A stretch of 64,000 bases of DNA from Mustelus asterias (taxonomy: Eukaryota). The notes under the pieces are model-generated. The model worked only from the letters and a program-made list of their open reading frames with translations. It did not search any database and was not told where the DNA came from. Position 1 is the stretch's first letter. The number at the start of each line of letters is the position of its first letter. Both the position numbers and the translations under genes were made by a program. This document shows positions 27,347 through 64,000 of the stretch, piece by piece. Where the stretch lies: positions 496,001 through 560,000 of the forward strand of contig NW_027590253.1 in NCBI RefSeq assembly GCF_964213995.1, read 5' to 3'.

Positions 27347-27374
27347 GTCAGCAGCTTTGTGCCACCGTCACCAC

Positions 27375-30205: not shown

Positions 30206-30332
30206 GCTCCGACCCGGGGCCCCCCGCTACTCGGGCGAACGTGAACTCACCCCACCCCGGAAACAAAGTGCAGGCGCTGCCCCAGAGGAGGCACGTTTCA
30301 GGCCGTCTGAAGCTCAATTCTCATTCAGAGAG

Positions 30333-31445
30333 ACCTCTTTTTAGGTCAAACCAAGTAAACAAACTCAAATTAAATCAGGACAAAGTAAAAGGGGCAGCTC
30401 CCCAAAAAGGAGGGGGAACAGCCCGAACAGAAATCAAAATACAAAGGAAACTTAAAAACATCAAGTTAAAATGTGATTATTAGGGTCAATAATGCACCCC
30501 AACCCCTGCGGTGCCCAGCGGGCGCGGAAAGCGTCAACCTCGCCCGTGGACACCGCATGCTCCCTCTCCAGGGACACCTGGCCGCGAACGTAGCCGCGGT
30601 AGAGGGGAAGACAGTCAGGATGGACGGCCCCCTCGATCGCCCGCTGCCTGGACCGGTAAATGGCGCTTTTGGCCAGGCCCAGGAGCAGGTTCACGAGGAG
30701 GTCGCCATCCCGACCCTCCCCTCTCCGCACCGGGTGTCCGTAGATCAGGAGCGTGGGACTGAAGTGCAAACAAAACATCAATAAAAGGATCTTTAGAAAA
30801 ACATAAAGGGAGTGCAGCCTAAGACACTCAACATAGACATGGTCCACGGACTCCACAAGGCCACAGAAAGGGCAGTCTTCGGAGCCCGTGAACCAGTGAA
30901 TCCTACGGTTGTGCGGAACTGCTGCATGCATCACCCTCCACCCCAGGTCCCCGACGTAATTGGGGGAGATCCCTCCGTAGAGGGACCTCCAGCGGGGACC
31001 TCCGCCGCCCGGCGGCAACAAGGCCCGCCAAGGTGTATCCGGGCGACAGGCGAGGAGGCGGTAGTGGAGGGTGTGCAGCAGCAGCCCGCACAGGAAACGC
31101 CTCCGCGCGGTAGAAAAAGGCACGGAGGGCATTTCCGCGAGGCGGCTCAGGCTGTGGGGCACCTCACCCAGGGGAGGGGGCTGAGGCTTTGGGCCAATGT
31201 GGAATTCCGCCCGAACAGGGGAACGCTCAGGCGGGATCCCACCGCACGCCTGCGCCGTCTCAAGTTTGCGTGCAGTTTCGGGGCCGAGCACGACCGTCCT
31301 AAGGTCTAGGATGGCTTTGGCCGCGCGCCAGACGGACATCCCCGCGCGCTCAGCCAGCACGCGGGGACTCATCCAGCCCGCCCCTCTCTCATCGAGCACG
31401 TCCCCGATTCTGGTCACCCCGGCGTCCACAGCCCCCCTCTCCGCC
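30333..31445 (-). mobile_element. 5'-truncated second copy of the same Tx1 element
   Basis: Near-identical to 23331-24445; ORF 30461-31429 matches the ORF2 C-terminus. Confidence 0.92.
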
Positions 31446-31686
31446 GGTCTGCGCCTTCACAAGACTCTGGACACAATGGGTAAAGAGAGATAGAGAGTGA
31501 GAGATGGATTCATATATATACATGATGAGAGAGAGAGAGAGAGATTGCCCCAATACAAACACACTCCCCAACCTCTCTATCCCCCTCCCCAGCAACTATC
31601 TGAAGCTAAATTAATGTCACAACATTACTGCCATCTTTTACCCAAAACTTAGCTTCAGACCCTGTCCCTCTATATTTAACCAGCCC
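31444..31686. repeat. ~240-bp segment duplicated at 36412-36652
   Basis: ccttcacaagactctggacacaatggg...tttaaccagccc is near-identical at both positions. Confidence 0.9.
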
Positions 31687-35492: not shown

Positions 35493-35682
35493 GATGTGGA
35501 GATGCCGGCGTTGGACTGGGGTAAACACAGTAAGAAGTTTAACAACACCAGCTTAAAGTCCAACAGCTTTATTTGGGAGCAAAAGCCACACAAGCTTTCG
35601 GAGCTTCAAGCCCCTTCTTCAGGTGAGTGGGAATTCTGTTCACAAACAGGGCATATAAAGACAGGGCAAACAGGGCATATAA
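35493..35682. mobile_element. Repeat fragment, probably a Penelope-like terminus, truncating ZNF-D
   Basis: gtggagatgccggcgttggactgggg...aagtccaacag..tttatttgg; a related reverse copy at ~38520-38635; family assignment from recognition only. Confidence 0.5.
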
Positions 35683-35684
35683 AG

Positions 35685-36112
35685 AGGTTTGAAGACTGAG
35701 TGAATCTCTTCCCACACACACAGCAAGTGAACGGCCTCTCTCCAGTGTGGACTCGCCGATGTTTCAGCAGATGGGATGAGGTAATGAATCCCTTCCCACA
35801 CTGGGAGCAGGTGAATGGCCTCTCCTCAGTGTGAGTTCTCTGGTGTATATGTAAGCTGTTTGACTGAGTGAATCCCTTCCCACACTGGGAGCAGGTGAAT
35901 GGTCTCTCCCTGCTGTGACTGCCCCGATGAATCTCCAGCTGGGGTGGGTAATCAAATCCCTTCCCACAGTCCCCACATTTCCACAGCTTCTCCCTGTTGT
36001 GACTGCAATTATGTTCCGAAAGCCTGGATGATTGGTTGAAGTCCTGTCCACACACAGAACACGTGTACAGGTTCTCTCCCCTAAAAATGGTGCTTTTTCC
36101 TTCCATGTTCAA
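35685..36112 (-). pseudogene. Truncated C2H2 zinc-finger gene (ZNF-D), four fingers plus a partial fifth
   Basis: [16 protein letters not shown].. WKCGDC.. FTCSQC x2, then [16 protein letters not shown] breaks into repeat sequence. Confidence 0.8.
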
Positions 36113-36759
36113 AACACAATGATATTCAGGTTACAATAAATTGGCTAACTCCAGCAGGTTTCGATATCATATTTGGTTTCAGTTTCCCAACTGCAAATCC
36201 TCCTCTTCTAAAACCCTGGGAAATTGAGTTCGAACAGAAAAAAGGAAGTGAGAGAGAACCCACAAAAACACAAAGGCAGATTGTGAAATTGAGCTGAATG
36301 AATCTGATCATTTGTGGGGCCGGCGCGAGGAAAAAGTGACCATGAAAACTACTGGATTGTCACAATAATCTGACAGGTTCGGTAATGTCCTTCAGGAAAC
36401 AGAACCTGCCACCGGCCTGCACCTTCACAAGACTCTGGACACAATGGGTAAAGAGAGATAGAGAGTGAGAGATGGATTCATATATATACATGATGAGAGA
36501 GAGAGAGAGATTGCCCCAATACAAACACACTCCCCAACCTCTCTATCCCCCTCCCCAGCAACTATCTGAAGCTAAATTAATGTCACAACATTACTGCCAT
36601 CTTTTACCCAAAACTTAGCTTCAGACCCTGTCCCTCTATATTTAACCAGCCCAATTAATTGATTAAGCTGAATCAAACAACGTTGTCTAATTAATAACAA
36701 TCATATTTCGCCAAAGCTCATCTTCTTCTCTGATGTATTTTAGGAGAGGAAATTTTACT

Positions 36760-43242: not shown

Positions 43243-46199
43243 TGATTAACTGAAACACATTTCAGCACAGTCATAATTCAGAAACCATCGTGTAAACAGG
43301 CTTTGGCTTCACTTATGAACAACTGATAATGAGCCGAGTAGAGGAATAACAGAGACAGGACATGCTGTAATGAGGCTGGGACATGGCCTGTTGAAATACA
43401 AACAGACGTGGGGGCTAGTTGAACGTTCCAGAGATATGACCTGTTCAAAATCATTTAATGAGGTTTTGCTGTCACTGGTAACGTAGGATTTGTTGCCACT
43501 TCTATTTTTTCCTTTGGGAATGTGCTGGTGAGCCCTCTTCTTAAATCGTTGCATTCCATATGAGTAAGTACACATACAGTGCTGATGGGAAGGGAGTTGC
43601 AAGATTTTCATCCATTGACACTGAACAAATAGTGATATAGATCCTAGTCAAGACGGTATGGAGGTTTCATGGGCATTTGCAGGTAATTGTATTCTCCTGC
43701 ATCTGCTGCCCTTGCCATTTTAGTATCAGAGTTAATGTGTTTGAAAGTTGCTACCAAAGGATTATGTTGCTGCTATACAAGTTGTATATGGTTCACACGG
43801 CTAGAGTTGTACATCTGTGATGCAGAAAGTGAATGTTTAAAGTGGTTGGTGGGGTGTTCTTCCAGCCGCCTGCTTTTTGCTGGGTGGTTTCGAGCTTTTT
43901 GGGTGTTGCTTCAGTACCACACGCCAGGCAAGTGGAGAATATTCAATCACAATCCTGACTTTTGCCTTTATATGATGGATAGGGTTTGGGAAGTCAGGAG
44001 GTGAGTTACTCCACGCACAATTCCCAGCCTCTGACCTGTTTTTGTCGCAATATTATTGACATGGCTGTCCCAGTTCAATTTTCCATCAATGGCAATTCCC
44101 AGAATGATGATAGTGGGGTTTCAGCTGTAGTCATTCAATTAATGGCAAGCGGAGATGATTGCAATCTCTCTTACTTGAAAGGGTCATTGCCTGTCACCTC
44201 GGTGGCGTGAATGTCACATGCCACTTCACAGCCAAAGCCTGAATGTTTTCTAAGTCTTTCTTCTTACGGACACGGACTGCCTCAGTATCTGAGAAGTTGT
44301 AAATGTGCTGAACATCGTGCAATCATCAGTGAACATCCCACTTCTGAGCTTGTATTGAAGCGTGAATATTAGGCCGAGGGCACTATCCTGAGGAGTTTCT
44401 TCAGCAAATACCCTGTGACTGAGATGATTGGCTTTCAACAGCCACAGCCATCTTACTCTGTGCTCGGTTTGACTGAAGCCAGTGGAATGTTTTTTTTCCC
44501 CGGATCCCCATTGACTGCAGCTTTGCTCGGGCTTCTTGATGCCACAATCGGTCAAGTGCTGTGTTGATGTCGAGGGCCGGCACTCTCACCTCACCTCATT
44601 AAAGCAGCTATTTCCACTAGATTTGGACTAAGCTTAAATGATTTCTGGAACTGAGTGCTCCGAGTGGGACCCAAACAGAGCATCATTGAGCAGATTACTA
44701 TTATTTGTAGTTGTAGCAGTATTGATATTATTATATTATTATTATTTTTTTAGATGATCCTTCATACTTACCATTACGTTGATCGAGTGAGGACGCATTG
44801 GGCGATAATTGGTCGGGTTGGATTTGTCCTGCCTTCAGAAACAGGTCACGTCTGCCAATTTTCACACTGTTGTGTATGTGACCGTGATGTAGCTATACTT
44901 GAATAGATTGGCTAAGGCTCAGCTAGCTCCAGAGCACAAACCGTTATTATTATTGCTGAAATATTGTCAGGATCCATAATCTTTGCAGTATCCAATGCTT
45001 TCAGCACAAGGTTAGGCCACAGATCAATCATGATCATATTGCATGGCAGAGCGGGCTCCAGGGGCTGAATGGTCTACTCCTGTTCCTATCCTCAATGTTA
45101 TAGAAACATAGAAAACTGCAGCACAAAACAGGCCCTTCAGCCCCACAAGTTGTACCGAACATATCCCTATATTTTAGGCCTACCTGTAACCCTCCATCCT
45201 ATTAAGTCCCATGTACACATCCAGGAGTCTCTTAAAAGACCCTATTGAGTTTGCCTCCACCACCACTGACGGCAGCCGATTCCAGTCGCCCACCACCCTC
45301 TGTGTGAAAAACTTACCTCTAACATTTCCCCTGTACCTACCCCCCAGCACCTTAAACCTGTGTCCTCTCGTAGCATGTTGAATGAATTGACCTCCTTGGA
45401 GACTGGCATCTGTGATGTTCGGGGCATCAGGGGAAGGCAGAGATGGAACATCTTCTGCCTGAACATAGGAGCAATTGTTTCAGTCTTGTTTCTTTTCCTT
45501 TTCGTTTGAGGCTCCTGCTGCAGTTACTTGTTTAAATGTCCATCACCATTCAGGACTGCATGTGGCAGAACTGCAAAGTTAGGGTCCAGTGTAGTATTTA
45601 TTGAGGCAGTGCCTTCTTCATGTAATGTAAACCATCAAGGTGCCAATTCCATCTGCTGGCAAAATTCTGCAATTACAGTTACTGTAAATATATCGCTGTC
45701 AGGTATGATTTATGACAGTAATATACAAAGAATTCACATTCATAAATATAAGACCACATCCCCTTCTGCAGAAAGTGCCCAAATTTAAGGTGCAACGAAT
45801 TATAGATTAGATGTACATTGCTGAATAATACAGGTTAAGTTGTGTCCCGCAGGAATCTGTCTTGAGGGGGGAGGGGGGCGGGGGTATGTAGTTGAAACGA
45901 ATGGCATAGAGAGAATAACAAAGTGAATGTAAATGTGATGATAAAGGCTGAGAATGGTGCTGAGAGCGTCCATTAAGAGATTGCGATGGATAAATGGCAA
46001 AACAGAGATTGCAGAGTATGTGAATGCAACTGTTGTCCCTATTGGGATGGGGAGGATGGGTTTGGGGGAGAGATGAAGCAGGGTTGAAAACGAGATTTCA
46101 GAAGTTGAAAACTAAAAATAAGAAAATAAAGTAATAAAAATGGACGAGTATGATGAAAAGAAGAAATTAGATAAAATAAATGGAAAGGGAGTGGAGGTG

Positions 46200-46960
46200 G
46201 AGGCGAAAGGTCATGCTCTGAATTTGTGGAACTCAATGTTCAGTCCCAGAAGTCTGTAAAGTGCCTCATCTGAAGATGCGATGCTGTTCGTCCAGTTTCC
46301 ATTGGGCTTCACTGGAATTTTGCAAACCAAAGAAATGACCTGTGGAGAGGCAACCAGGATGGTGTGTTCAAATGATAAGCGACAGAAAGGTCTGGGTCCT
46401 GCTTGCAGATTGACCATAGGTATTCTGCAAAGCGTTCAACCAGTCTGCATTTGACTCTCCAATGTAGATTAGATCGCATCGGGAGCAGCGAATGCCATGG
46501 ACCAGATTAAAGGAAGTGCATATGAAGCGTTGCTTCACCTGAAAAGAATGTTTGGGCCCTGGGATGCCGAGGAGGTAGCAGTGAAGGGGCAGGCGCAGCA
46601 TCTTCTACGATTGCCATTGGCGATAGGTGAGTTGTTAGGTGTGATGAAGAAGTGGACACGGGTGTCCCGGAGGCAACGGTGCCTGTGGAGTGCTGACAGG
46701 GAGAGTGACGGGAAGATAGCTTGAATGGTGGCGTCATGCTGGAGCTGGCAAACATGGCGGACGATAATTCTTTTAATGAGGAGGTTGATGAGCTGAAAAG
46801 CGAAGGCAAAGGGGACAATATCCTGGTCCTGGGAGGGAGGAGAGAGGCTGAGAGCAGTAGCCCTGGAGATGAGTCGGACATGGCTAAGAGCCCTGTCCAC
46901 CACAGAGGGTGGAAATCCACGATTGGAATGCTCTCTAATTGGTTCCACAACATATTGTTG
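46200..46960 (-). mobile_element. Penelope-like element fragment (GIY-YIG endonuclease region)
   Basis: GPKHSFQVKQRFICTSFNLVHGIRCSRCDLIYIGES and NRGFPPSVVDRAL motifs, frameshifted. Confidence 0.75.
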
Positions 46961-47629
46961 CAGCAAACAATCCCTAATGCATTCTGTGAACTCTCCCTCG
47001 GGGCTAGCCTTGCCAATTTGTTAAATCCAATGTATATGCATATCAAAATAATCCATAATTATTGCAATACCTTTCTCACAAGCCCCCAAAATTTCCTTAT
47101 TTCTCCTGTGCCCAACTACAGACCGACTGTTTGGGGACATATACATTATTCCACCATCTCATTTTCCTTTCTGTCTATCCGTCTGAAGTATTGAGCGCCC
47201 TTGGATCTTCAATTCCAAAATCTGGTTTTCATTGCAACCACACTTCAGAAATCACTACTAAGTCATGTCCATTTGTCTCTAATTGTGCTGTTAACTCATT
47301 AATTTTATTCAGAATGTTTCATGCATTCAAAGATACAAAGCCCTGAAGTTTGTTCTGTTTTCAAATTTCCCTATTCTTGCACGATTTTGGTGCAATATGA
47401 TGTTCACATGTTCTGTGCCTTCATGTTCGCTCACCTGCAGTCCAACCTTCTCCTTCATCGTCGATTTTTAAAAAATTTTCATGCAACAGGTCCTTGTCTC
47501 CCCCTGCCCCATTATTCAGTTAAATGCCATATCTGCAGCCCTCGCTATGTGATTTGCCAAGACGCTGGTTCAGGATGAGTTGGTACCAATGTAACAGTTT
47601 CCTCCTGCGGTACTGGGGTGTTAATGCTC

Positions 47630-48214
47630 TCGAGTCATGGAGCTTTACAGCGTTGAAAAAAGGCCCTTCGGCCCATCTTGTCCATGCCATCCAGGTTTTA
47701 CCACTAAGCTAGTCCCAATTGCCCGCATTTGGCCCATATCCCTCTATACGCATCTTACCCATGGAAGTGTCTAAATGCTTTTTAAAAGTAAAAATTGTCC
47801 CCGCCTCCACTACTACCTCTGGCTGATCTTTCCAGACACTCACCAGCCTCTGAGTGAGAAAAATGCACTCTGGACTATTTTGCAGTTTGAAAAACAACCC
47901 TTTCCAACCACCCCCTGTCTTCTCTCATCAAGCCAATTTTGCATCCAATTGGCTACTTCGCCGTGGATCCCGTGAGATTGAACCTTATGCAGCAATGCAC
48001 CATGTGGTACCATGTTAAAGTCCATGTAGACAACATCCACTGCACTGTCCTCATCTACCATCTTGGTTACTCCTTCAAAAAATTCAATCAATTTCGTGAG
48101 ATATGATTTTCCACTCACAAAGCCATGGTAACTGTCCCTTATTAGTCCGTGCTTTCTAAATGCCTGTAGATCCTGTCTCTCAGAATACCTTCTAACAGTT
48201 TACTCACTGCAGAC
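47630..48214 (-). mobile_element. CR1 fragments with an internal deletion
   Basis: LTKLIEFFEGVTKMVDE..AVDVVYMDF and 3'-end VVEAGTIFTFKKHLD. Confidence 0.8.
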
Positions 48215-48227
48215 CTCACCATTTTAA

Positions 48228-48387
48228 GGTTTTTGTACAGCTCTCTCTGTGTTCTGTATCACTATGTCTGTGATTTTCACCATGTTCATTTTTTGTACAG
48301 CTCTTTCTGTGTTCTGTATCACTGTGTCTGTAATACTCACCATGTCCAGGTTTTTGTACAGCTCTCTCCATGTTCTGTATCACTGTG
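48228..48387 (-). promoter_or_regulatory. Three tandem 23-bp-spacer recombination signal sequences
   Basis: RSS1 CACAGTG(48387-81)-23-ACAAAAACC(48357-49); RSS2 CACAGTG(48326-20)-23-ACAAAAAAT; RSS3 CATAGTG(48266-60)-23-ACAAAAACC. Confidence 0.92.
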
Positions 48388-48693
48388 CTGTGCTCTGACT
48401 CAGTGCACAGTAATACACAGCGGAATCGCTCAGTTCCAGTTTGGAGATCTTTAACCAGCTGATTTTCTCGGCAGAATCGATAGAAGCAGAAATTCTCCCC
48501 CCGGCAGCATTTTCTTTATTCTCCTCTCCTGAAGTGAGTGTCTGAAGCAGGTATTTCAGAGCCTGCCCTGGGGGCTGACTGTACCAGTGTACTGTGTACT
48601 GACAGAGACCTGAATATTCACAGCTTAAAGCAACCGTGTCACCAGCAGCAGAGGTTTGGAGAGGCGGATTTTTCGACACCAGGGAACTAGAAT
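48388..48693 (-). CDS. Leaderless supporting TCR-delta V segment of NAR-TCR
   Basis: Acceptor ctttttttatcctccag| at 48693 (phase 1); (D)SSSLVSKNPP..LSCEYSGLCQYTVHWY..DSAVYYCALS; canonical C-W-C plus an extra CDR1 Cys; followed by a perfect 23-RSS. Confidence 0.88.
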
Positions 48694-50888
48694 CTGGAGG
48701 ATAAAAAAAGAAACAGCGTTTTCTTCTGTGGTTCAGTCACTGTTTACCAGGGGAATGTGTCAATTGCGGGAGTAGCTCAGTTTTATTCGGTGTTATTATC
48801 ACTTTAAATCTGATGGAACTGTATTCACTGTTATTATTATTGTAAACCAGTGGAAAATGAGGTTTTCTTGACACAACAAGATCCAACGGTCTGGAATGCA
48901 ATGTCGGAATAGATGGTGGGAGCTGAATCAACAGTGACAAACACACGGGAATAGTCAAGCGCCGGAACAGGAATAAAACAGGGTTATGGGGAAAATTCAT
49001 GACTAAGGGGAAGAACTGCATTTCACTTATAAAGGGCTGCATCTACTCGAGGGGCCGAATGTCACCCTTTTGCACTCTATGATTCAATGATGTATGTTAC
49101 ATTTCACTTTCTATTTCCCTTCCTAAGAGACAAACACGAGGGAACATTTTATTATCAGTGAGGCAATCCGTTCCAAGTGACTAACCCAGCTGCGTTACGT
49201 CGTAGCGCACAGCAAGATCCAACAGGGAATGACTGTCATCCATCAGCTCCAATGGGAATGGAATGATGTTGAACATCGGTGCTCAAATGTCATTCATTTA
49301 TATCTGTTTAACACTTCCCGGGAATCTCTGTTTGTTCATCTATTTGATTTTCTTCTGCTATCGAACTATCAGGAACATTTTTTCTCCTTTTCTCTTTACT
49401 TAGAACTATTTACAGTCAGTTTTATTTGGTTTCAACATTTATTTTGCGCTGTTTGGGTTCGTTGCAATCGTGGAAAGTTCTCCCAAAGTCTCTCAGTTGT
49501 CAGTTGGGTTTATTCCGTTCAGTTTCTGCAGTGGTTTTACAGTTATTCACTGGGAACTGCCTCTTCTGGCTCTCTGACAAGTTCAATTCTTTTTTTGCTC
49601 TTTAACTGATTCTCTTCTGCGGTCTCTGGGCGGAATTTTCTCTAAATTTTACATTGTATAGAAACGGCAGAAGAACAGGCAATTCGGCCTAACTCACTGA
49701 TGTCTGCATAGAAACACCCGACCAGCCTCACCCTTCAGAAATCTAATTGGCCATTTCTATCCAGCTCACTCTGTCGGTCTATTCTGTTCTCCCTTCAGTA
49801 TTTTCGAGTCTTCCCATAAATGTACCACTCGCCTCTGCTCCAAACATTCAATGTGACAGCGAGATCCACATTCTGGCTCTCCCTTTTTGAATTGATTCGG
49901 ATTGATGTATTTATTTTCTTCTGTAAATGACAACTGTCAGGAAACAAAGGTAGTTTAACTAATCTCTTCAGTGTTTTTGGACATTAGAAATAAAGTATAG
50001 GTTTAAGTCAGTTTAGTTTAATATTTCAGTATAAAAAGGGTAAAACTCCAGTTATATTAATTTCAAACAAACGTGTTTTCGTGTGTGGGGGATTTAGTTT
50101 CATTTTAAATTATGCCTCTTTTGACGGTGGAAAATGAGGAAAGTGATTGGTTATATGGAGGATGTTTAGAGGAATGTCAGGTACAATTTCACTAATTTCA
50201 GTAACTGATTTCTCTATTGAAAAATACAATCTGGAACTAAACAGAGTCTCTAATGTCTGAAGTCCGTTGTCTCTTTTATTCTATTTGTCTCCCGGGACAG
50301 TTATTGGATGAACTGCTGCGGTTAAATGAACTGTCCGCGGTGGCATTGATCTCATTCAACCGGTAGCTTCTTCATATTACACGGCAGGGACTTCAGTCTA
50401 CTGCCCAGGAGAGAGCTCTGCGATCCCAGTGCCGGGCTGTTCGAGACAGGCAGATCTCCTTCGGTCACAATTAACACCGAAGGTGGATTCCAGAGTGCCG
50501 ATAATTTGTTATAAACTATCAGGATTGTGAAAGCCCTTGATATGGATGTTAACCCCGATGTGCCCGTTAAACTAATAATGACCCAAATACTGTCAACCCT
50601 CACATCACAGCCCATCCACCCCCCACCCCTCCACTTCCATCCCCACAACCACCACTATCCCTACAGCACTGACCGCCTTCTGCATCAGGTCTCACATTCG
50701 CTTTCCCCAGGGCTGACCTGGATCGACTCCTAAATCACGTCCTGCTCCCAAATCAAAATCTGTAACGGATCTGTAAACAGATCCTTATCCGTATCCATTG
50801 GACTGAAACGATACAGATCACGATAATAAAATGACGGTGAACGTTAAACGAGACATTTTGTAACACGGCGGGGTTTGGAGTCACTTAC

Positions 50889-50940
50889 CGGCTGTGACAG
50901 TCACCACCGTCCCTGAGCCATCGGCATCATACCATTTGTA
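50889..50940 (-). CDS. NAR-TCR J segment
   Basis: YKWYDADGSGTVVTVTA then G|GTAAGT donor (phase 1, in frame with the 48693 acceptor); RSS heptamer 50941-47, 22-bp spacer, nonamer ACAAGAACT 50970-78. Confidence 0.9.
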
Positions 50941-51317
50941 CACTGTGATACCGATCTCAGTCTCCCCGTACAAGAACTACCGACTACTCAACTTGACGGG
51001 AAATCATCACAGTCATTTGGAAGTTCCCAATTATTCGGGGGATTTAAATCAATAAATATTATTCAATGTTTTGAAGTCTCTGTCGGTTCAAACTGTTCTT
51101 TTTGAGGCCCCGCGTTCTCAGTAAATATCCCCAGGGAGGAGATAGTCGCTTCATATTAGCTGAGAAAAATATTAAAGAAAGATGTGAGTGATGGAAAGTG
51201 CAATGTAATTAATCCAGATTGCAGCGCTAATAACATCAATCCATAATTCTCTCTCTGGGCCCTGCGAATGTATATTGTAATTGTGCACAGGTATTTGCTC
51301 AGCTTCTTTTTACTGTG

Positions 51318-51334
51318 ACTCTCCTAACCATTTA
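51318..51334 (-). other. NAR-TCR D segment (17 bp) flanked by two 12-RSS
   Basis: TAAATGGTTAGGAGAGT; 5' RSS CACAGTG(51335-41)-12-ATCAAAACC; 3' RSS CACAGTA(51317-11)-12-GCAAATACC; only one stop-free forward frame (KWLGE). Confidence 0.85.
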
Positions 51335-51726
51335 CACAGTGTTATAATTTAGCATCAAAACCCCAGATACTGTGTGAGATGTAGGGACATTAATTAAACA
51401 GCGGGGACTGCGGTTCCCAGTTCCAGCTGAGAGACGATGATCCCATCTTTTGTTTGGGTTTGTAACTGGGATCAGTCATTTCCATTCTTCATTCATCAAC
51501 ACCTAACCCGGGAAAGATGTCAGCTTCCGCACACACTCCTTGTTTAAAACACTCAGAATGTTAACGGTAATAATCAAATCCTCATTATAAACGTGACTGT
51601 GGGATTGACGGTGTGCGATGGAACTGTGCGGGTTTCAGGGAAGATTAACTCCGCTTTTTCATTTGTTTATGTGAAAATCTTCAGTGAGAGTTTTAGTATG
51701 ATGGGAAGCCGAGGCCCATCACTGTG

Positions 51727-52015
51727 CCGTCTCCTTTGTAATGAGCTTTACAGAAATAGGTGGCGGTGTCTTCAACTCTCACATCCCGAATTTCCAACGA
51801 AAATTTCTTTTCTGCTTTATTCACCGACACAACAAATCTCCCTCCGCCGGAGATCCACTCCCGCTCCGTTCCGGTCTGTGTTTGTTTGAAGAATTCCGCC
51901 CTCTCCAAAGCACGAGCATAGAATCCACCATAGAAAACACAGGTGATGGTGAGGGACTGACATTCCTTCCTGGTCACCGCTGCCGGGCTCTGTGTCACTG
52001 ACTGACTGAAAGATC
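51727..52015 (-). CDS. IgNAR-like NAR-TCR V exon
   Basis: Acceptor ttccag| at 52015; SFSQSVTQSPAAVTRKECQSLTITC...GGRF...EDTATYFCKAHYKGD; extra FR1 Cys, shortened CDR2 region; RSS CACAGTG(51726-20)-22-ACTAAAACT(51697-89). Confidence 0.9.
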
Positions 52016-52164
52016 CTGGAAATTAAACACAAGAGAGTTTAAAGGATCATCAGAGCTGAACCACACAACGGGGCTAAAACCCCAGACAGTGTCTGTAATT
52101 GGGATGGACTGGGGCAGCTTTATATTCAATCCACACAATGTAGTTTAGTGTGATCAGTACCCAC

Positions 52165-52207
52165 TGGGTAAATAGACACACAGGCTGAAAACGAGAAGAA
52201 TTCCCAT
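52165..52207 (-). CDS. Leader (signal peptide) exon of NAR-TCR V
   Basis: ATG at 52207, MGILLVFSLCVYLP then A|GTGGGT phase-1 donor, in frame with the V exon across a 149-bp intron. Confidence 0.85.
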
Positions 52208-52599
52208 CGCTCTGCTGCCCGGAGCTGATGGTTGATATGACGGGGAGCTGGAGACTGCAGAGCTGGACTGCTCTGGGACACTGGATCTCAGAGCGGAACT
52301 GAAAGACATCAGGCCCGAACGTCGTCAATTTTGGCCACGCCCATTGTTTAAAATAAATCTCGAGAATCTAAAGGTGGCGGAAAGCTGTGAACATTCAGTC
52401 AAGGTTCCATAGTTATCGCTGCCTCGGAGCTCCCGACCCGAGAATCTCGTCCCGCGACTCCTCTGGCTGTTGCCACCCAGAGTTTGGGAATGTCCCTCTT
52501 TGTCAAAAACAAGTAAGATTCTTATTCTTTTATTTTTTTTCAGTGTCCAAGTGCAGAGATAACCCTAACCCTAAGCCTAACCCTAATGAGTGCTGGGTC

Positions 52600-53540
52600 C
52601 ACTGTTATTTGTCACTGATATTAATGATTTGGATGAGAATTTAGGAGGCGTGGTTAGTAAGTTTGCAGATGACACCAAGATTGGTGGCATAGTGGACAGT
52701 GAAGAAGGTTATCAAGGATTGGGCTAGTGGACTGATGAATGGAAGATGGAGTTTTATTTAGATGAATGCAAGGTGATCCAAATTGGTCGGTCGAACCAGA
52801 ACAGGACTTACTCATTTAATGGGAGGGTGTTATGGAAAGCTATAGAACAAAAGGATCTCAGGGTACAGGTTCATAGTTCCTTGAAAGTGGAGTCTCAGGT
52901 GGACAAAGTGGTGAAGAAGGCATTCAGCATGCTTGGTTTCATCAGTCAGAACATTGAATACGGGTGTTAGGACGTCTTGCTGAAGTTGCACAAGACATTG
53001 GTAAGGCCACATTTTGGATACTGTGTATAGTTCTTGTCAACCTATTACAGAAAGGATATTATTAAACTAGAAATAGTGCAGAAAAGATTTACTAGGATGC
53101 TACCAGGACTTGATGGTTTGAGTTATAAGGAGAGGCTGGATATACTGGGACTTTTTAGGGTTGATCTTATAGAGGTCTATAAAATAGCGAGGGCATCGAT
53201 CAGTTTGATGGTCAACATATTTTCCAAAAGGCGGGAGAGTCTACAACTAGAGGGCATAAGTTTAAGTTGAGAAGGGAGAGATACAAGAGGGTCCAGAAGG
53301 GCAATTTTTAACAAAGAGGGTGGCGAATGCCTGGAACAAACCGCTAGAGGCCGTAGTAGAGGCGGATACAATTTTGTCTTTTAAAAAGATTTTGGACAGT
53401 TCCATGGGTAAAATGAGTATGGAGGGATATGGGCCAAACGTGGGCAATTGGGACTAGCTTAGTGGTTAATAAAAGGGCGACATGGACAAGTTGGGCCAAA
53501 AGGCCTGTTTCTATGCTGTAAACGTCTATGACTCTATGAC
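52600..53540 (+). mobile_element. CR1 3' fragment
   Basis: SKFADDTKIGG...VQKRFTRMLPGL..; (ctatgact) tail. Confidence 0.85.
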
Positions 53541-53569
53541 TGCGGAACACACAGGGTGAAGTGAGTGTG

Positions 53570-54250
53570 ATAGACACTAGCTTCAAGAAGGTTTCACACC
53601 ACAAGTCCAGACAGATAGATGGGTGACTGCCAGGACAGGCAGGCATATAATGCAGGAGTCTCCTGTGGCGCTTCCCCTCTCAAACAAGTATACCGTTTTG
53701 GATACTGTTGGGGAGGTGGTGGGGCGGAGGGGGTGGGGGGAATAACCTCTCAGGGGAAAATACCAGCAGTAGCCAGGCCTGTGGCACCACAACTGGTTCT
53801 GCTGTAGAGCAGGGTCGAGCTAAGTTCAAGCGAGTTAAAGTTGTGGGAGACTCGATAGCCAGGGGCACAGTCAGGCGTTTCTGTGGCAGCGACAGACATT
53901 CTAGGATGCTGTGGTCCCTCGCAGGTTCCAGGGTCCTGGGTGTCTCTGAGCAGGTACAGGCATCCTGAAACGGAAGGGTGAACAGATAGATGTCATTGTC
54001 CATATTGGCACGAATGACAGAGGCAGGAAAGGGGAAGAGGTCCTGTGAAGAAAATTCAGGGAGTTAAGTTGAGAGCTATGAGCAGGACCTCTGGGGTAGT
54101 AATCTCAGGATTACCGCCCCCCCCCCCCCGCCCCCGCCATGCCACGTGCTAGTGAGGCTTGCAACAGGGAGATAATACAGTTGAATACGTGGCTGAAGAG
54201 CCGGTGTATGAGGGAGGGCTTTAGAGATATGAATCACCGGGATGTTTTCA
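53570..54250 (+). mobile_element. CR1 ORF1 (SGNH/esterase-like) fragment
   Basis: VKVVGDSIARGTVRRFCG; VIVHIGTND in another frame. Confidence 0.75.
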
Positions 54251-54379
54251 GGCAACTGAAGGATCTTATTGGAGGATTGTGCTATATTTTTCTTGTTCCT
54301 ATTATTTTATTTTAATACAATTTAATGCAAATGAACCTATTCACAGAATCGATACCAATCTCAGGAACAGCGATAGGCG

Positions 54380-54670
54380 AACTCGAAGACATACACACAC
54401 GAACACATTCACAAACTCAAACAGACACACGAAAACTCACAGGCACACACACAAACACATATACGGATATACACAATCTCAGACAAGCAGCTGCAGGCAA
54501 ACTGGCAGACACACACAAACACATTCACGGACGCACACAGACATGCAAACAAAAACACAGACTTACATAAACACAAGCACAGACACACACTCACAGACAT
54601 GCAGACAAACAGACAAACACATAGACATGCACACCATCAAACGCACTCTCATAAACACAGAGACAAACTG
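54380..54670. repeat. Degenerate (CA)n tract
   Basis: CA-rich low-complexity sequence. Confidence 0.8.
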
Positions 54671-55109
54671 AGACAATGAAGGGTTGAAGTCAATTTCACT
54701 CTAATCCATCTGCTGGGCACTAAGATAATAAGAGAAGCAAATCTAAAGCTCGTTGTGTTGGGTTTGTTGTGAAATGAGAAAAAGTATAAATATACCGCAT
54801 AGCTCAGAATGGGACTGGAATTGATGATTTCTCAGCTGTCTGTGATCTCTTTGAACAAATATAGAATTGGAGAGATTTTAACGCGTGAATTGTAATATCT
54901 AATGGCGTAAAGTATCTGGGTGCAGAGTGGATTTGATAAAGGCTGGAAGACAGACTGAGGTAATGAGATTGAAGCTGCTGTTCTGAGTGAATGGTTTTTT
55001 TGCAGGGAGCGATGGATGGGGGAGAGAGGGATGGATGGAGAGAGGGAGGGAGAGTGAGATGGATGGAGGAAGAGATGGATCGATAGGGGTGAATGTGAGA
55101 AGCTGAAGT

Positions 55110-56935
55110 TTATAGAACATTGAACATAGAATATTACAGTGCAGTACAGATCTTTCGGCCCTCGATGTTGCGCCGACCAGTGGAACCAATCTAAAGCCCC
55201 TCTAATCTACACTATTCCAATATCATCCATATGTTTATCCAATAACCATTTGAATGCTCTCAATGTTGACGAGTCCACTACTGCTGCAGGCAGGGCATTC
55301 CACGCCCTTACTACTCTCTGAGTAAAGAACCTACCTCTAACATCTGTCCTATATCTCTCACCCCTCAATTTAAAGCTATGTCCCCTCGTGTTAGCCATCA
55401 CCACCCGAGGAAAAAGGCTCTCACTATCCACCCTATCTAATCCTCTGATCATCTTGTATGCCTCTATTAAGTTACCTCTTAACCTTCTTCTCTCTAACGA
55501 AAACAACCTCAAGTCCCTCAGCCTTTCCTCATACGATCTTCCCACCATACCAGGCAACATCCTGGTAAATCTCCTCTGCACCCTTTCCAACGCTTCCACA
55601 TCTTTCCTATAATGTGGTGACCAGAACTGTACGCAATACTCCAAGTGCGGCCGCACCAGAGTTTTATACAGTTGCAGCACGACCTCATGGCTCTGAAAGT
55701 CAATCCCTCTACCAATAAAAGCTAACACACCGGATGCCTTCTTAACAACCCTATCAACCTGGGCGCCAACTTTCAGGTATCTATGCACCTGGACACCCAG
55801 ATCCCTCTGTTCATCCACACTACCAAGTATCTTACCATCAGCCCAGTACTCTGTATTCCTGTTACTACTTCCAAAGTGAATCACCTCACACTTTTCCGCA
55901 TTAAACTCCATTTGCCACCTCTCAGCCCAGCTCTGCAGCTTATCTATGTCCTTCTGTAACCTGCCACCTCCCTCCGCACTGTCTACACCTCCACCGACTT
56001 TAGTGTCATCCGCAAATTTACTAATCCATCCTTCCACGCCCTCATCCAGGTCATTAATAAAAATGACAAACAGCAGTGGCCCCAAAACAGATCCTTCCGG
56101 TACACCACTAGTAACTGAACTCCAGGATGAATATTTCCCATCAACCAGCAACCTCTGTTTTCTTACAGTTAGCCAATTCCTGATCCAAACCACTAATTCA
56201 CGCTAAATCCCATGTGTCCGTATTTTCTTCCAAAGCTTACCATGGGGAACCTTATCAAACGCTTTGCTGAAATCCATAAACACCACATCAACTGTTATAC
56301 CCTCATCCACCTCTTTGTCACCTTCTCAAAGAACTCAATAAGGTTTGTGAGACACGACCTACCCTTCACAATACTGTGCTGACTATCCCTAATCAAATTA
56401 TTCCTTTCTGGATGATTATCAATCCTATCTCTTAAAATATTTTCCAAAACTTTGCCCACAACAGAAGTAAGGCTCACTGGTCTATAATTACCAGGGTTGT
56501 CCCTACTTCCCTTCTTGAACAAGGGGACAATATTTGCTATCTTCCAGTCTTCTGGCACTGTTCCTGTAGACAATGACGACACAAAGATCAAAGCCAAAGG
56601 CTCTGCAATCTCCTCTCTAGCCTCCCAGAGAATCCTAGGATAAATCCCATCCGGCCCAGGGGAATTATCTATTTTTACCCTTTCCAGAATTGTTCACATC
56701 TCCTCCTTATGAACCCCAATCCCGTCCAGTCCAACAGCCTGCATCTCAGTACTCCCCTCGACAACATTGTCCCTCTCATGTGTGAATACCGACGAAAAAT
56801 ATTCATTTAGTGCCTCTCCTATCTCTTCAGACTCCACGCACAACTTCCCACTACTGTCCTTGACTGGCCCTAATCTTACCCTCGTCATTCTTTTACTCCT
56901 GACATACCTATAGAAAGCTTTAGGGTTTTCCTTTG
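55110..56935 (-). mobile_element. 5'-truncated CR1 LINE
   Basis: ORFs 56694-56888, 56295-56597 and 55207-56193 encode the RT and C-terminus (FADD), frameshifted. Confidence 0.92.
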
Positions 56936-57614
56936 GCCGGTCGGCTATATGACATTATATTATTGCATCCTTATGTTAAGAAAAAGTGGAGTGAACGGTA
57001 ATGCAAAAGAGAAGTCAACATTTCAGTGAGTTACTGAAGCCTCTGAGCGTGATCATTTTATCTTTGTAGTTCTTGGATCAAACCTACCGAATTAACATAA
57101 ATAAGAAAATTTATTGGCGGTGCTAAGAGACATGATTGATAAGAGTGGAACACTGGAAACCAAAACAGATGGCAGACCAGAAAGAAAATATCGGAAAATT
57201 TATTTCTGAGAGAAGTTTTATACTAGCAATAATCCATTCTCCAAGGTAAAGTACTCCCTCCAACCCTTCGTCCGGAGAGAATGGCTTTGTTCCCATTTCA
57301 CTGACAGCTGCTACCAGAAGATATGCCACTCGTCTGTCGCATCTACTAACACAAGTGATGCGCTCTCATGCATCAAGTGTGGCTGGCCAGCAGTATGGCC
57401 TGTTCTTACCGCCTGTTAGGGATGAAGTTCTGAGATTGGACTAGACACAGTACCGTCTGTCTGGGCCGCAGTTCGATGAGACATGGCGCCATCAGACCTT
57501 CGTGAACCGCCAACACACTTTCAGTTCATTTATTAGAAAATTGTACAATGCGAGTGCAATCCAGGGGATGAGGGCAAAACAAAACTTCTACAGTTCGATG
57601 ATCTTACCCTCGAG

Positions 57615-57870
57615 ATCAGAGTGGTTAACAGAGCTGGCTCAGCGGCAGTGAGCCGGGTTCAATTTCGGCCTCGGTGTCTCTCTATGTGGAGTTTTCGCAT
57701 TCTCCATTTCTTCATTGGTTTCGTCCGGGTGCTCTGGTTTCCTCCCACACTTCAAAGATCTGTAAGCTAGATGGGTTAGCATGGGGTGTGTGGGGAATGG
57801 GCTGTTCGTAGAGTCAGTGCAGTGTCGATAGGCCGAATAGCCTCCTTCTGCACTGTCAGGATTCCCTAAT
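57615..57870 (+). mobile_element. Degenerate HE1-like SINE
   Basis: ggttcaatt B-box-like, tccgggtgctctggtttcctcccaca core. Confidence 0.6.
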
Positions 57871-59044
57871 GAAGCAAGGTGAAGGGACTTAGAATGATGG
57901 AAGATCATTGGCCAGCAATTTGTTGAAGAAAAAGTGATGCATTCAGTTTTCCAGCGAGAGTCAAACAAGCGGTTAATCAACTTTCCCATAGCATTTGCTC
58001 TTTGGCTGTACTCGAAATACAATGCAACTATGGGAAGCTGCTGCAGCAGGATTTCCATCACCACTTCCTCGGGAAAATAAATGCTGACAGCCATCCTTAC
58101 AGTTAGGCATCTATAACAAATTTTGACTGAAGCATATCCGATAGAAAGGATTTACAGGTAAACATTGGTCTCGCGATATTAGGTGAGAGGAAATTAAAAA
58201 AATACTGAACTGACGAATGAGTTTGGAGAGGTGACGTGTAAAACGAGCAAGAGAAGTTCTAGGAACTGGTAATAGGATGTGAAATCCAACCACAAACAGA
58301 CCAAAGGAAATCAACAAAATTTCAACTGTTCAAATTGTGGAGATCGGTGGGGCAGGGAAAGGGGTGGGGCGGGGTGGGCCGGTGGAAGGAAACGATCCTA
58401 GAAGTTGCAAGAAAAGTATGAAGAGTCGAGGTTTGTGAAAAATTGAGAAATCTTATAAATTAGTCAGAACAGAAACATTCTTATTGAAGGCCTTTGGACA
58501 TTACCAACAATGGAAGGAAATTAGGGTGAGCGAAAAGTGCTATTCGGATCAAATGGACATAAATAAGAGCCAACGTCAACCACTTGGCTATTGTAGACAC
58601 CTCTATCATTCAATAAGTTCATGGGTGTTTCAATCTTGGTGTGAACTACACGTTGCCACGTGTTCCCCACAACACTTGAATTCCCTGTAGTTCGAACAAT
58701 TGTCTAACTCAGCATTTGATTCATCCAGTGACACAGCATTGGCTGCTCTTTGAGGAAGAACATTATAAGGACCATAGGACTTCTGACGGAAAAAAACGTA
58801 CCTCTCATCGCAGTATTGAATGGAAACATCATGGCCAGAATTCTCCCATCCCGCTCGCCAGGAGAATTGTAGCGGGTGGGGGGTGGGCCATGTAACGGTC
58901 CATTGACCTCTGGCTGGATTCTCTGGATTTTGAGACGAGCATGCCCAGAGAATCACTCCATTAATAGTTAGAAAGTGCCCCTAATTCCAGATTTCCTCAA
59001 CGAACATGTGCAGCGAAGAGTTGTTGCAGGAGAGTTGTTGCATT

Positions 59045-61295
59045 TTATTCATACGTTCGGAACAAAAGGGTTGTTAGGGAAAAAATCGGACCTCTCAGGG
59101 ACAAAAGTGGGGAATTATGCTTGGAGCCCAAAGAAGTAGGGGAGATCCTAAATGAATACTTTGCGTCGATATTCACAAAGGAGAGGGATGTGTTGACTGG
59201 GAGTGTCTCGGAGGGGAGTGTTGAACCGTTGGAGAAAATCTCCATTACAAAGGAGGAAGTGTTAGGTTTGTTAGAGAATATAAAGACTGACAAATCCCCA
59301 GGGCCTGGTGGAATCTATCCAAGGCTGCTCAGGGAGACGAGAGGTGAAATCGATGGGCCTCTGACGCAAATCTTTGTCTCGTCACTGGACGCAGGTGAGG
59401 TCCCAGAGGATTGGAGGATAGCTAATGTGGTCCCGTTATTTAAGAAGGGTAGGAAGGATAACCCGGGTAATTATAGGCCAGTGAGCTTGACGTCCGTGGT
59501 GGGGAAGTTGTCGGAGAAGATTCTTAGAGATAGGATGTATGCGCATTTAGAAAGGAATAAACTCATTAACGATAGTCAGCATGGTTTTGTGAGAGGGAGG
59601 TCATGCCTCACTAACCTGGTGGTGTTTTTTGAAGAAGTGACCAGAATGGTTGACGAAGGAAGGCCGTGGATGTTGTCTATATGGACTTTAGTAAAGCGTT
59701 TGACAAAGTCCCTCATGGTAGGCTAGTGAAAAAGGTTGGATCTCATGGGATAAAGGGGGAGGTGGCTAGATGGTTGGAGAACTGGCTTGGTCATAGAAGA
59801 CAGAGGGTGGTAGTGGAAGGGTCTTTTTTCCGGCTGGAGGCCTGTGACTAGTGGTGTTCCGTATTGGGACCTCTGCTGTTTGTGATTTATGTAAATGATC
59901 TGGAAGAAGGAGTAACTGGGGTGATCAGTAAGTTTGCGGACGACACAAAACTGGCAGGACTTGCAGATAGTGAGGAACATTGTCAGAGGCTACAGAAGGA
60001 TATAGATAGGCTGGAAATTTGGGCAAAGAAATGGCAGATGGAGTTCAATCCTGATAAATGCGAAGTGATGCATTTTGGTGGGAATAATGTAGGGAGGAGC
60101 TACACGATAAATGGAAGAACCATAAAGGGTGTAGAGACGCAGAGGGACCTGGGTGTGCAAGTCCACAGATCTTTGAAGGTGACGTCACAGGTGGAGAAGG
60201 TGGTGAAGAAGGCATATGGCATGCTTGCCTTTATAGGACGGGGCATAGAGTATAAAAGTTGGGGTCTGATGTTGCAGATGTATAGAACGTTGGTTCGGCC
60301 GCATTTGGAATACTGCGTCCAGTTCTGGTCGCCACACTACCAGAAGGACGTGGAGGCTTTGAAGAGAGTACAGAGGAGGTTTACCAGGATGTTGCCTGGT
60401 ATGGAGGGGCTTGGTTATGAGGAGAGATTGGGGAAACTGGGGTTGTTCTCCTTGGAAAGACGGAGGATGAGGGGAGACTTAATAGAGGTGTATAAAATTA
60501 TGAAAGGCATAGACAGGGTGAACGATGGGAAGCTTTTCCCCGGGTCGGTGGTGACGTTCACGACGGGTCATAGGTTCAAGGTGAAGGGGGGGAGGTTTAA
60601 CACAGATATCAGAAGGACATATTTTACACAGAGGGTCGTGGAGGCCTGGAATGTTTTGCCGGGCAAGGTGGTGGAGGCGGACACACTGGGAACGTTTAAG
60701 ACTTATCTAGACATCTATATGAACGGAGTGGGAATGGAGGGATACAAAAGAGTGGTCTAGTTTGGACCAGGGAGCGGCGCGGGCTAATTGTTCTTTGTTT
60801 CTCGTTTCAAGGCTTCATTCTATGATCATCTTGCTGGTGCCAGTACAGAGCGAGACTGCGGATAGTTGGGAACCTGTCTCGGGGGCAGGGAATTCAGATG
60901 GTGTTCGTAAAGCAGAAGTGGAAATGAATAGGGTTGGGAAGCATTTTCTGATCAGGGCCAGTGTGATCTCCTGGACTCGTTTCGATCGCCTCAGGGGGTC
61001 GGAGAGGAATTTCCCAGATTTTTTTCCCCCATATTGGCCCTGGGGTTTTCACTCTGGGTTTTCGCCTCTCCCTGGAGATCACATGGTCTGGAATTGGGGG
61101 GTGCGGGTGAGTTAATAGGTTGTGATGAACAAAGCATCGTAGCTGTGAGGGACAGCTCGGTGGATAGGATATTAGGATGTAGATAGGCTGGAAAATTGGG
61201 CGGGGATCCTGGATTCAGGATTCAATCCTGGACCGGGGAGCGGCGCGGGCTTGGAGGGCCGAAGGGCCTGTTCCTGTGCTGTATTGTTCTTTGTT
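59045..61295 (+). mobile_element. Young 5'-truncated CR1 LINE with an extended 3' UTR
   Basis: ORFs 59121-59726, 59666-59851 and 59864-60760 (RT, FADD); terminal gggccgaagggcctgtt..(ttgttct)n. Confidence 0.92.
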
Positions 61296-61649
61296 CTTGT
61301 TGTTCTTTGAGAGCTTCCTCTCAGAAGCGGACCCTTCTTACCTCCTCCTAATCTCACAATGTCCAATAAGAGCACCTCGCATTACTCCTAACTCTACTGA
61401 GTACAGGCACATACTACTCAACGTTCTTCGTAAGAGTACCCGTTTTGCCCAAATGAGGATCAAGAGAGTGAAAGTTAGCTGAACCCGTACCAAAGCATGT
61501 ATATTTATTCGCACATATTGAGAAAAAAAACTTTGCAGAATAATCTATGCGTGATCTCATGTATGTTCTCGTCCAGTTGCAGCAGAGAAAATAGAAAGGG
61601 AACAAGTTATATCATCGTCACGAGAGAAAATGCACTGAGCGATTGTGCT

Positions 61650-63080
61650 TGACGGCAGGCAAGCCCCCAGAGCCTGGCTGCCTTCGTGTCAATGACCTTA
61701 AATTGTATGGCGTTGGAGAGAGTGCATCCATTTGCTACAATATTCTCAAATTTACTGGATGTGGATGTGGTTCCAGTGAATATCAAAAATGTTAATGTAA
61801 CATCCTTATTCAAAAAGGGGGGAAGCAAAAGTAGGAATCTATTTGTTTAACATCCATCATTGGGAAATTGTTCGAATCAATTTTAAAGGAAGTAATAGCA
61901 GGATGTGGAGGAAGTGAAAATGCAATTCACCAGCCCCAGCACGGTGTTATGAAACGTAAACCGTATTTTGCTTGAGATCTTCGAAGATGCAAATAGTAAA
62001 ATGGGTAATGCAGATCCTGTCGATGTAGACCTGAAGTCCAAAATGTATTTGTAACGTGCCATGCAAAATGATAATACACATGTTTACTTAACGTGATATT
62101 CGGGATGATTTATAAGCTTGGATAGAGGATAGATTAACCAACATGAAGCAGAGATTCGGTCTAAATGGGTTATTTGTGTGTTGTCGAGATGTATCGAGTC
62201 GGATGCCACAGGGATCAGTCCTCCAGCTCCATTTCTTTACGAACCATGTTAATTAATTTGATGCACGCATTGTAGATATCACCGTCAATTTACGGATGAC
62301 ACAAAGATCGGTGGGAGTCTAAGGTGTAACAGTTAAATAAGAAACTAAAAATTGAATAGGTTTAGGGTAAATTAATGTGGCAAAATTTGGCAAATGGAGT
62401 TTAACATGGATGAATGTGAGGTTATCCATCTTGGTAGGAAAAATATACAAAGGCAAATTATTTTCTCATTGGAGAGATACTTCGGAGTGTTTTGGTGCAG
62501 AGGGTTCTGGGTGTTCGTGTATATGATTCACAGAAAACTAATATGCACGTACAGCAGCTATCAATGAGGGCAAATAGAGTCTTGGCATTTAGTTTAATGG
62601 AATAGAATATAAAAATAGCAATGTGGTGCTGCTACTATACAATGCATTAGTGAGACGGGACTTAGCATATTGTGCACAGTTTTGGTCCCGTTTATGACGA
62701 TGGATGCAATTGCATTGGATGCACTTCAGAGAAGGTTCACTCGTTTGATTCCAGAGATGAGGGGTTTGACCTACGAAGAGATTTGTCAGTTTAGGCCTAT
62801 GCACCTTCCAGTTTAGAAGAATGAAGGGCGATCTAATTGAGGTAATCAATATGATCAGAGAGATTGTCAAAGTAGACGTGCAAAGCATGTTTCCTCTTTT
62901 AGGGGGCAATGAGGAACAAGAGATCCTAGTTTTAGATGATGGTTTACTGCAGAGATGAGGAGCAATTGCTTCTCTCAAATGGTCGTGAGTCCATGCAATT
63001 CATTACCCATTCGGCTTCGAGCAAATTAAAGGAAGAGGGTTACAGATTTTTAATTAGAATGGGTTTGAAGTGCTATAGGA
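61650..63080 (+). mobile_element. Old degenerate CR1-like LINE
   Basis: Remnants NVTSLFKKG, PQGSVL, DDTKIGG, YCAQFWS, RRMKGDLIEV with many stops. Confidence 0.7.
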
Positions 63081-63089
63081 AAGGGGCAA

Positions 63090-63350
63090 GAAAGAGAGAG
63101 AGAGAGACAGAGAGAGACAGAGAGAGAGAGTATGTGTTGAGCAGGGAGTCTTTGTCTGTCGGTGTGTCTGCCTGTGTGTGAGGGCCGATGTGAGTGTATG
63201 CGTCTGTGTGATAGTCTTTGCGAAAATGCGTGTGCATTCGTAAGATATTCTGCGTTCCTTCTGTTTTTGTCTGGTTGTGTGCATGTGTGTGTATATGTGT
63301 GTGCAGGTCTGTGTACGACAGCATGAATACGACAGAGAGTGTGTCTGAAT
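63090..63350. repeat. (GA)n / degenerate (TG)n tract
   Basis: Visible low-complexity sequence. Confidence 0.75.
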
Positions 63351-64000
63351 ATGAGATGCACAAATGTGAACGCATGTTTATGCACATGATTCTCAGTATC
63401 TGTGTGAAATTTAGTTTGTAAAACAGAAGCATATTGTCATTTGGAACATAATCACTTGAACCATCCTATCCCTTCTGGATGTTAACAAAGTCAGGAATAA
63501 TTGAAGTACCATTTTGGCTCTGTATTTATTGTGTGTTAGGGAACCGTCCACCTGTTTCTGCGGAATAAACAGTGAAACATTCCCTGATAAATGCTTGTGA
63601 AATTTGTTGAGGTAATTGGGTGCAAGTTTTGATTGCAACTAATTTGCTTTCTCGGTTTCACAGTAACTTATAGAATTATAGACAAAGAGCTGCAAAATTG
63701 GGTAGTTTGTTTATCCCTCATTTCTGACCCAGCAAGGACACAATGTGAATCAAGGCTGTTAAGATATAAAACATAAAATATGTGTCTAAAAAATTGTGTT
63801 TTCAAACTTTAAAGAACCATTGTGTGAAATTGAGGCAACTAAATTGAAAATATTAAAATATCTTTAACAGCATCCATTATGGAAGATTAAACATTGACAA
63901 TGTCTGTCAGAAGAATTAGAGGGCAGAAAAATTGACCCATTTCCATTCCGATTGGGACCAAAATCTGATAGCTGGATCAAATGTACAGATTGCTGTCTAC

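Follow-up and report, generated by a model that had tools for sequence, protein, structure and literature searches.

A window of 64,000 nucleotides from Mustelus asterias carries on its minus strand an intact cassette of NAR-TCR, a T cell receptor (TCR) of cartilaginous fish that has reportedly been known since Criscitiello 2006. We read the cassette as a recent duplicate of the front of a TCR-delta unit that likely works (probability about 0.58) by rearranging its own V, D and J segments and then joining a distant D-delta segment, with a three-domain delta chain as the predicted product. The cassette itself is an ordinary addition to NAR-TCR; its main interest is that it hints at a TCR-delta family that is possibly clustered and germline-rearranged. 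Contig C221 (588,559 bases) contains the window; C-numbers denote contigs or scaffolds of the same assembly (G000), and coordinates without a contig name are window positions.

Annotation of the cassette, with recombination signal sequences (RSSs) scored against the RSS consensus, and comparison with its closest relative on contig C110 gave the following features.

52165..52207, minus strand: leader exon of 14 codons plus 1 nt (43 nt), with a phase-1 donor (GTGGGT) that splices in frame
51727..52015, minus strand: NAR-TCR V exon, 289 nt, IgNAR-like, with an extra Cys in RKEC and FFKQ replacing WYRK
51689..51726, minus strand: V RSS, 22-nt spacer, nonamer with 2 mismatches
51335..51362, plus strand: D 5' RSS, 12-nt spacer
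51318..51334, minus strand: D segment, 17 nt, a single forward frame open throughout (KWLGE)
51290..51317, minus strand: D 3' RSS, 12-nt spacer, final heptamer base unlike the C110 copy
50941..50978, plus strand: J RSS, 22-nt spacer, heptamer position 4 unlike the C110 copy, CAC kept
50889..50940, minus strand: NAR-TCR J, 52 nt, DGSGT motif, phase-1 donor GTAAGT
48694..50888, minus strand: intron from J to V-delta, 2195 nt
48388..48693, minus strand: leaderless supporting TCR-delta V exon, 306 nt, with a Cys (SGLCQY) in complementarity-determining region 1 (CDR1)
48349..48387, minus strand: V-delta RSS, a perfect 23-RSS
48228..48326, minus strand: two extra tandem 23-RSS copies, period 60-61, the second with CAT for CAC
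45866..64000, minus strand: part of a 47-kb block reaching the contig end, 98.6-99.2% identical to C110:888-936 kb
45855..45880: cassette-bearing block fused to a zinc-finger region at a poly-G tract, the original D-J-C delta side gone

Translation revealed that the leader and V exon (acceptor TTTCCAG) form a reading frame without a stop and that the leader peptide is identical to the N-terminus of the gene model P0002. Both introns are phase 1 with GT-AG ends, and the spliced J and V-delta read VTVTA-D-SSSLVSK and stay open up to the 23-RSS at 48387-48349. The signals run V 22 / 12-D-12 / J 22 and then V-delta 23, an order that is 12/23-compatible, and CAC is present in all five signals needed for rearrangement. 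RSS-like sites numbered 6 in 48200-52210; 200 dinucleotide shuffles gave a mean of 0.1 and a maximum of 2, and the remaining 60 kb of the window held 3 such sites. A simple scan of about 700 nt upstream of V-delta (48712-49400) detected no leader-like exon with a GTRAG donor, and the 393 nt 5' of the ATG held one TGACG half-site and no octamer or TATA box. An earlier note on this DNA had described an open leader, V, D, J and leaderless V-delta within 3.9 kb, compatible phase-1 splicing at both junctions, and extra cysteines in RKECQS of the NAR V and SGLCQY of the V-delta CDR1, all of which we found in place on the minus strand. Of its wording, 'complete' stands for the cassette (parts, frames and RSSs) but not for a gene, and 'apparently functional' has to be limited: to make a chain, a second rearrangement and a constant region are required, and the cassette's own D-J-C delta is lost. 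Behind V-delta, three 23-RSS units stand head-to-tail (48228-48387), and sister cassettes also have 2-3 strong copies; if a distal copy were used, the product would retain the first heptamer's in-frame stop.

The identity of the cassette as a member of the known NAR-TCR system is supported by sequence comparison. NAR-TCR V segments are described as having a leader and an a-b-loop Cys and lacking the WYRK Trp, and the supporting V-delta as leaderless with a Cys in CDR1 (PMC1845163); the cassette shows every sequence feature listed there. Pfam V-set matched both V exons, VNARs were the top PDB matches of the first V (E 4e-18), and the NAR-TCR marks were kept in most of 33 aligned shark models picked from 54 protein-search matches. 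The closest named proteins carry the source label Mustelus asterias, with P0002 99% identical to the cassette; they are computed gene models, probably from the same or a very close genome, and hence not independent evidence of splicing. The suggestion that such cassettes are easily missed by annotation proved half right: models such as P0002 do exist, but under the names 'uncharacterized' or 'T cell receptor alpha chain'. An AlphaFold model of P0002 contained two immunoglobulin (Ig) domains (mean pLDDT 76.1, pTM 0.55), and its Foldseek matches were single-chain variable fragments and diabodies (TM score about 0.33). In the Ig topology, the a-b and CDR1 loops that carry the two cysteines are expected to face each other. 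An IgNAR heavy-chain cluster, which has three D segments and IgNAR constant exons, was rejected as an identity for the cassette: it has a single D, then J and a TCR V, with no IgNAR constant exons. Besides the cassette, the window contained no further Ig V-type open reading frame (ORF) of at least 100 amino acids.

Comparison with the rest of the assembly revealed that the block at C110:888-936 kb is the front of a complete delta unit, whose cassette is 99.4% identical to that of the window (24 differences in 4.2 kb) and which continues, 26-50 kb downstream, with D-delta (12/23 signals), five J-delta segments, and C1, hinge and transmembrane exons. The duplicate ends 2.5 kb behind V-delta, at 45866, beyond which the sequence is a zinc-finger region whose three paralogues diverge after a common GG. 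Scaffold C71 carries the same junction (99.94% over 66.7 kb, followed by a 200-N gap), so the breakpoint is not peculiar to one contig; a misjoin specific to C221 was rejected on this ground, yet both contigs may derive from the same reads. Judged from the 47-kb match, the cassette identity, the switch at 45866 and the C71 junction, the cassette is a recent duplicate of a C110-type unit front from which the downstream half has been lost. In the 48 kb scanned downstream of the cassette there was no D-delta, J-delta or C-delta, and scans of 113 kb that took in the window and its surroundings gave no additional J, D or C. On C71 the window corresponds to 17.21 Mb, where the cassette is on the plus strand, and the region is collinear to 17.65 Mb in two samples.

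We propose that RAG would join the cassette's own V, D and J, for which outside parts are not needed, and that the resulting NAR VDJ exon would be spliced onto V-delta. The V-delta 23-RSS would be joined to a 12-RSS elsewhere, most likely one at D-delta in a distant unit. This rests on the cases in this genome of D-delta joined to V and D segments from outside, and on the great white shark, where it is normal for cassettes to be scattered, with 7 NARTCR entries over 8.4-17.1 Mb in both orientations (PMC12227049 Table S1). The observations bearing on this second join are the perfect V-delta 23-RSS, the presence of D-delta, J-delta and C-delta in sister copies, and their absence from the scanned DNA around the window copy. 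The predicted product would be a three-domain delta chain paired with TCR-gamma, carrying an unpaired antigen-binding NAR domain on the supporting V, as in the working model of an unpaired NAR domain and a delta chain paired with gamma (PMC3457774, PMC6795676). The two extra cysteines may form an inter-domain disulfide.

The assembly was searched with a constant domain from these gene models, and all 40 candidates were scored. This search identified 19 C-delta C1 exons, all open, comprising 14 nucleotide sequences on 17 contigs (three on C71), with as many as 32 of about 294 nt differing between them; their constant region is of delta type (best match human TCR-delta, E 1e-11 vs alpha 1e-4). 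Each of the 19 is preceded by J-delta segments, 15 have a NAR V and a supporting V-delta on the same strand at most 60 kb upstream, and the hinge and transmembrane exons are open in all eight units whose examined DNA reached them. A genome search for NAR V gave at least 85 matches, of which at least 55, including 3 with a stop, span 84 or more of the 95 residues with an identity of 64% or higher. Between copy groups, C1 exons had more replacement than silent codon changes (17 vs 5 for C119 vs C110), as raw counts not normalised by sites. Between cassette and D-delta lies a VH-like V with a 23-RSS (C110:954862-955161, with sister units on C111, C90, C115 and at C71:14.37 Mb), possibly the segment called TAILV in PMC12227049. 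Facing inverted pairs of NAR-TCR cassettes occur at C71:16.070-16.081 Mb, on C153, C444, C2349 and C786, and elsewhere. A protein search with the C1 domain returned 8 models under one species label; being word-based, it is uninformative on copy number in other sharks.

At C71:18.371-18.417 Mb, one array of 40 J-like segments, most with a 12-RSS, was found, and a stretch of it is single-copy; we call it J-alpha, judging from its size and the absence of D. No C-delta was found in the 70 kb ahead of this array, and no J-alpha array behind the three C-delta units that were scanned for 58-110 kb. With 19 C-delta exons and none in those 70 kb, the canonical TCR alpha/delta translocon, a single D-J-C delta immediately preceding J-alpha, was rejected. 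C-alpha was not found with Pfam PF09291 over the assembly, a model that had no match in control genomes either, nor by a motif scan of C71:18.30-18.50 Mb. J segments that we take, from their motifs, to be of beta and gamma type were seen on few contigs (C69:30.54 and 30.61 Mb, C73:7.08 Mb and C546:210-225 kb), a control indicating that the multiplication does not extend to other TCR loci.

Examination of D-delta in 18 of the 19 units (C3311 ends before it) showed that 11 are unrearranged and 7 are joined on the 5' side, with none joined to J. One open V-delta-D-delta junction is common to C119:553675, C96:1455112 and C436:213722, units with C loci that are 95-98.5% alike, and this sharing suggests that the join was inherited; in these three units just the D-to-J step remains. 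Other V-D joins at D-delta were located on C850, C401 and at C71:11.02 Mb, and on C850 the V-delta of a different cassette has been joined to a D-J-C that matches the unrearranged unit at C71:12.27 Mb with 100% identity over the C locus. At C138:217700-218640 (L179), an IgM-type leader and an open VH with RSS are followed by a first D joined to D-delta, ahead of J-delta and C-delta; this reads as an Ig-TCR hybrid in genomic DNA, of germline or somatic origin. Two precise heptamer-to-heptamer signal joints connect a D-delta 12-RSS to foreign V signals (C71:14376803 and C110:113696; L123, L127), and after the joint on C110 comes a NAR D/J-signal stretch in inverted orientation, which is fused to the coding end of a NAR V. 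Among the best 30 NAR V loci, 15 had separate V, D and J, 8 had V-D joined and 2 D-J joined, and 5 were otherwise rearranged or unparsed. The NAR D-J junction of C173 was found again in run X1, from another sample. Joins seen on a single contig could be somatic, captured via lymphocytes in the sequenced tissue, and RAG-driven germline joining is established for shark Ig light chains (PMC2193156).

Many C-delta copies pair at 99-100% identity, and we infer that they fit about 7-10 loci with both haplotypes kept. Tentatively, and at slightly less than even odds, TCR-delta of this shark lineage would have left the alpha/delta translocon for some 7-10 inherited miniloci (NAR V-D-J, V-delta, and D-, J- and C-delta), reshuffled by RAG in the germline into a shark counterpart of TCR-mu. 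Pre-joined V-D segments, signal joints and the IgM-TCR-delta hybrid gene would then be the marks of this reshuffling, and detached cassettes its by-products, which may feed TCR-alpha. That the multiplied, clustered C-delta arrangement is inherited is likely; the multiplication as such holds for this assembly and is not demonstrated for the species.

Comparison with other animals weighs against the generality of the multiplication. DNA-like contigs from four runs (three samples, one study, organism A) were compared with the C110 C-delta; the runs may come from a related species, since organism A differs by about 2% from the window over the cassette introns. In the three samples long unbranched contigs, the longest 520 nt, spanned C-delta with 0-6 differences, and two samples gave one C1 sequence each and the third up to three, which suggests 1-2 C-delta loci in these three animals, with the limits that contig depth is no copy number, the records are filtered and some differences went uncounted. 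It is quite possible that the 19 units are a peculiarity of this animal or assembly: an extreme copy-number variant, unpurged haplotypes, or joins captured from lymphocytes. The three C1 types of the other samples correspond to separate copies in the assembly, several copies pair in a haplotype-like manner, and the perfect identity of the C850 locus to an unrearranged unit is as expected of a somatic join. Opposed to this are 14 open exon sequences too far apart to be two alleles, the three C-delta exons on scaffold C71, the V-delta-D-delta junction common to three diverged contigs, and the NAR D-J junction seen again in an independent run. Pooled animals are an unlikely source of the 19 copies, since a J-alpha stretch is single-copy and gamma-type J segments lie on one contig.

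For the window cassette itself, several points count against a working duplicate. The constant-domain search found no C-delta exon on C221, and the nearest one on C71, which shares the cassette's strand, is some 5 Mb upstream, a geometry in which, we infer, simple deletion would leave the joined gene on the excised circle. Relative to C110, two RSS heptamers (D 3' and J) are changed with CAC kept, the D 3' change recurring in C111, and V-delta has a His-to-Leu substitution at the codon at 48537. The P0002 structure model leaves the domain orientation unfixed (pTM 0.55, TM about 0.33 to PDB matches).

A rival reading is a young unused orphan that lost D-J-C in the duplication and has had no time to decay: no joining partner was found on its contig, open frames are expected without selection at only 24 differences from C110, and three of these differences affect two heptamers and one conserved residue. 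We consider an orphan unlikely; against it stand the whole CAC of all five signals required, the perfect RSS of V-delta, and the long-range joins to D-delta elsewhere in the genome. More improbable is a role in TCR-alpha, with the 23-RSS joined by deletion to a J-alpha 12-RSS to give a three-domain NAR-TCR-alpha chain: the J array would lie on the same strand about 1.16 Mb downstream if the scaffold order holds, with no C-delta match in between, and nurse shark V segments are shared between alpha and delta (PMC5931798), but the linkage is assumed, given a C71 gap at 17.2146 Mb, the cassette's place, and a C221 start unlike the expected C71 stretch, the C-alpha exon was not located and the array is J-alpha only by size and lack of D, and the available literature passages describe NAR-TCR solely as a delta chain. 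A duplicate that rearranges its own NAR segments and joins a distant D-delta remains our preferred reading of the cassette.

The rest of the window consists of C2H2 zinc-finger arrays (3478-4269, 10104-11084, 19681-20997 and 35609-36130) and repeats of long interspersed nuclear element type. The minus strand of 23400-31500 holds a GC-rich retrotransposon lacking long terminal repeats, with endonuclease and reverse-transcriptase domains in overlapping ORFs, and a second copy of its 3' end adjoins it. Rfam gave no match in the window. Comparable zinc-finger arrays border both the delta units and the array of J-alpha segments, and zinc-finger genes flank the marsupial TRM locus too (PMC7615758).

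Comparison with known systems placed the cassette with NAR-TCR, with which it shares the leader, the IgNAR-like V, its own D and J, the leaderless V-delta with CDR1 Cys, and the RSSs (PMC1845163); the window copy differs in having no D-J-C delta on its contig. Shark TCR alpha/delta is described as a translocon (PMC12227049, PMC6795676), whereas here most sister cassettes front separate D-J-C delta units; the same articles assign the translocon plan to the TCR genes of sharks and the cluster plan to their antibody genes. Newt and bird TRD loci likewise have delta D-J-C apart from the J-alpha array and more than one C-delta (PMC12698447, PMC3457774), but as described in these articles they comprise one or two loci, as against 19 exons and 14 sequences here, and lack the NAR domain. 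Shark Ig miniclusters resemble the delta units in being numerous and self-contained, each V-(D)-J-C, and in that some are pre-joined and show ends of RAG type (PMC2193156, PMC4279169); they differ in being described for Ig and not TCR genes. We found no description of cluster-like C-delta multiplication with pre-joined segments in the literature, a weak negative because the main primary papers lay outside the search.

Mammalian TCR-mu (TRM) offers a parallel in layout, with repeated units of V-D-J, a supporting V and their own C, and with partial clusters (PMC7615758). Clusters each with their own constant gene are found among the sister units, though not in the window copy. Identity with TCR-mu was rejected: TCR-mu has a VH-related first V and an independent origin, whereas here the first V is VNAR- or IgNAR-like and the constant region is delta-type, closest to TCR-delta. 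The supporting V of TCR-mu has reduced junction diversity and is germline-joined in marsupials, and TCR-mu was described in 2023 as the only TCR with a germline-joined V (PMC7615758); most units here retain D-delta and several J segments, with joins at D-delta being V-D or D-D only. If many germline-joined C-delta miniloci are inherited, TCR loci can switch to a cluster plan, with RAG reshaping the germline, and allelic exclusion across many delta loci would be directly testable. The arrangement would then be convergent with mammalian TCR-mu, and the three-domain TCRs of sharks and marsupials would have converged in gene layout as well as protein shape.

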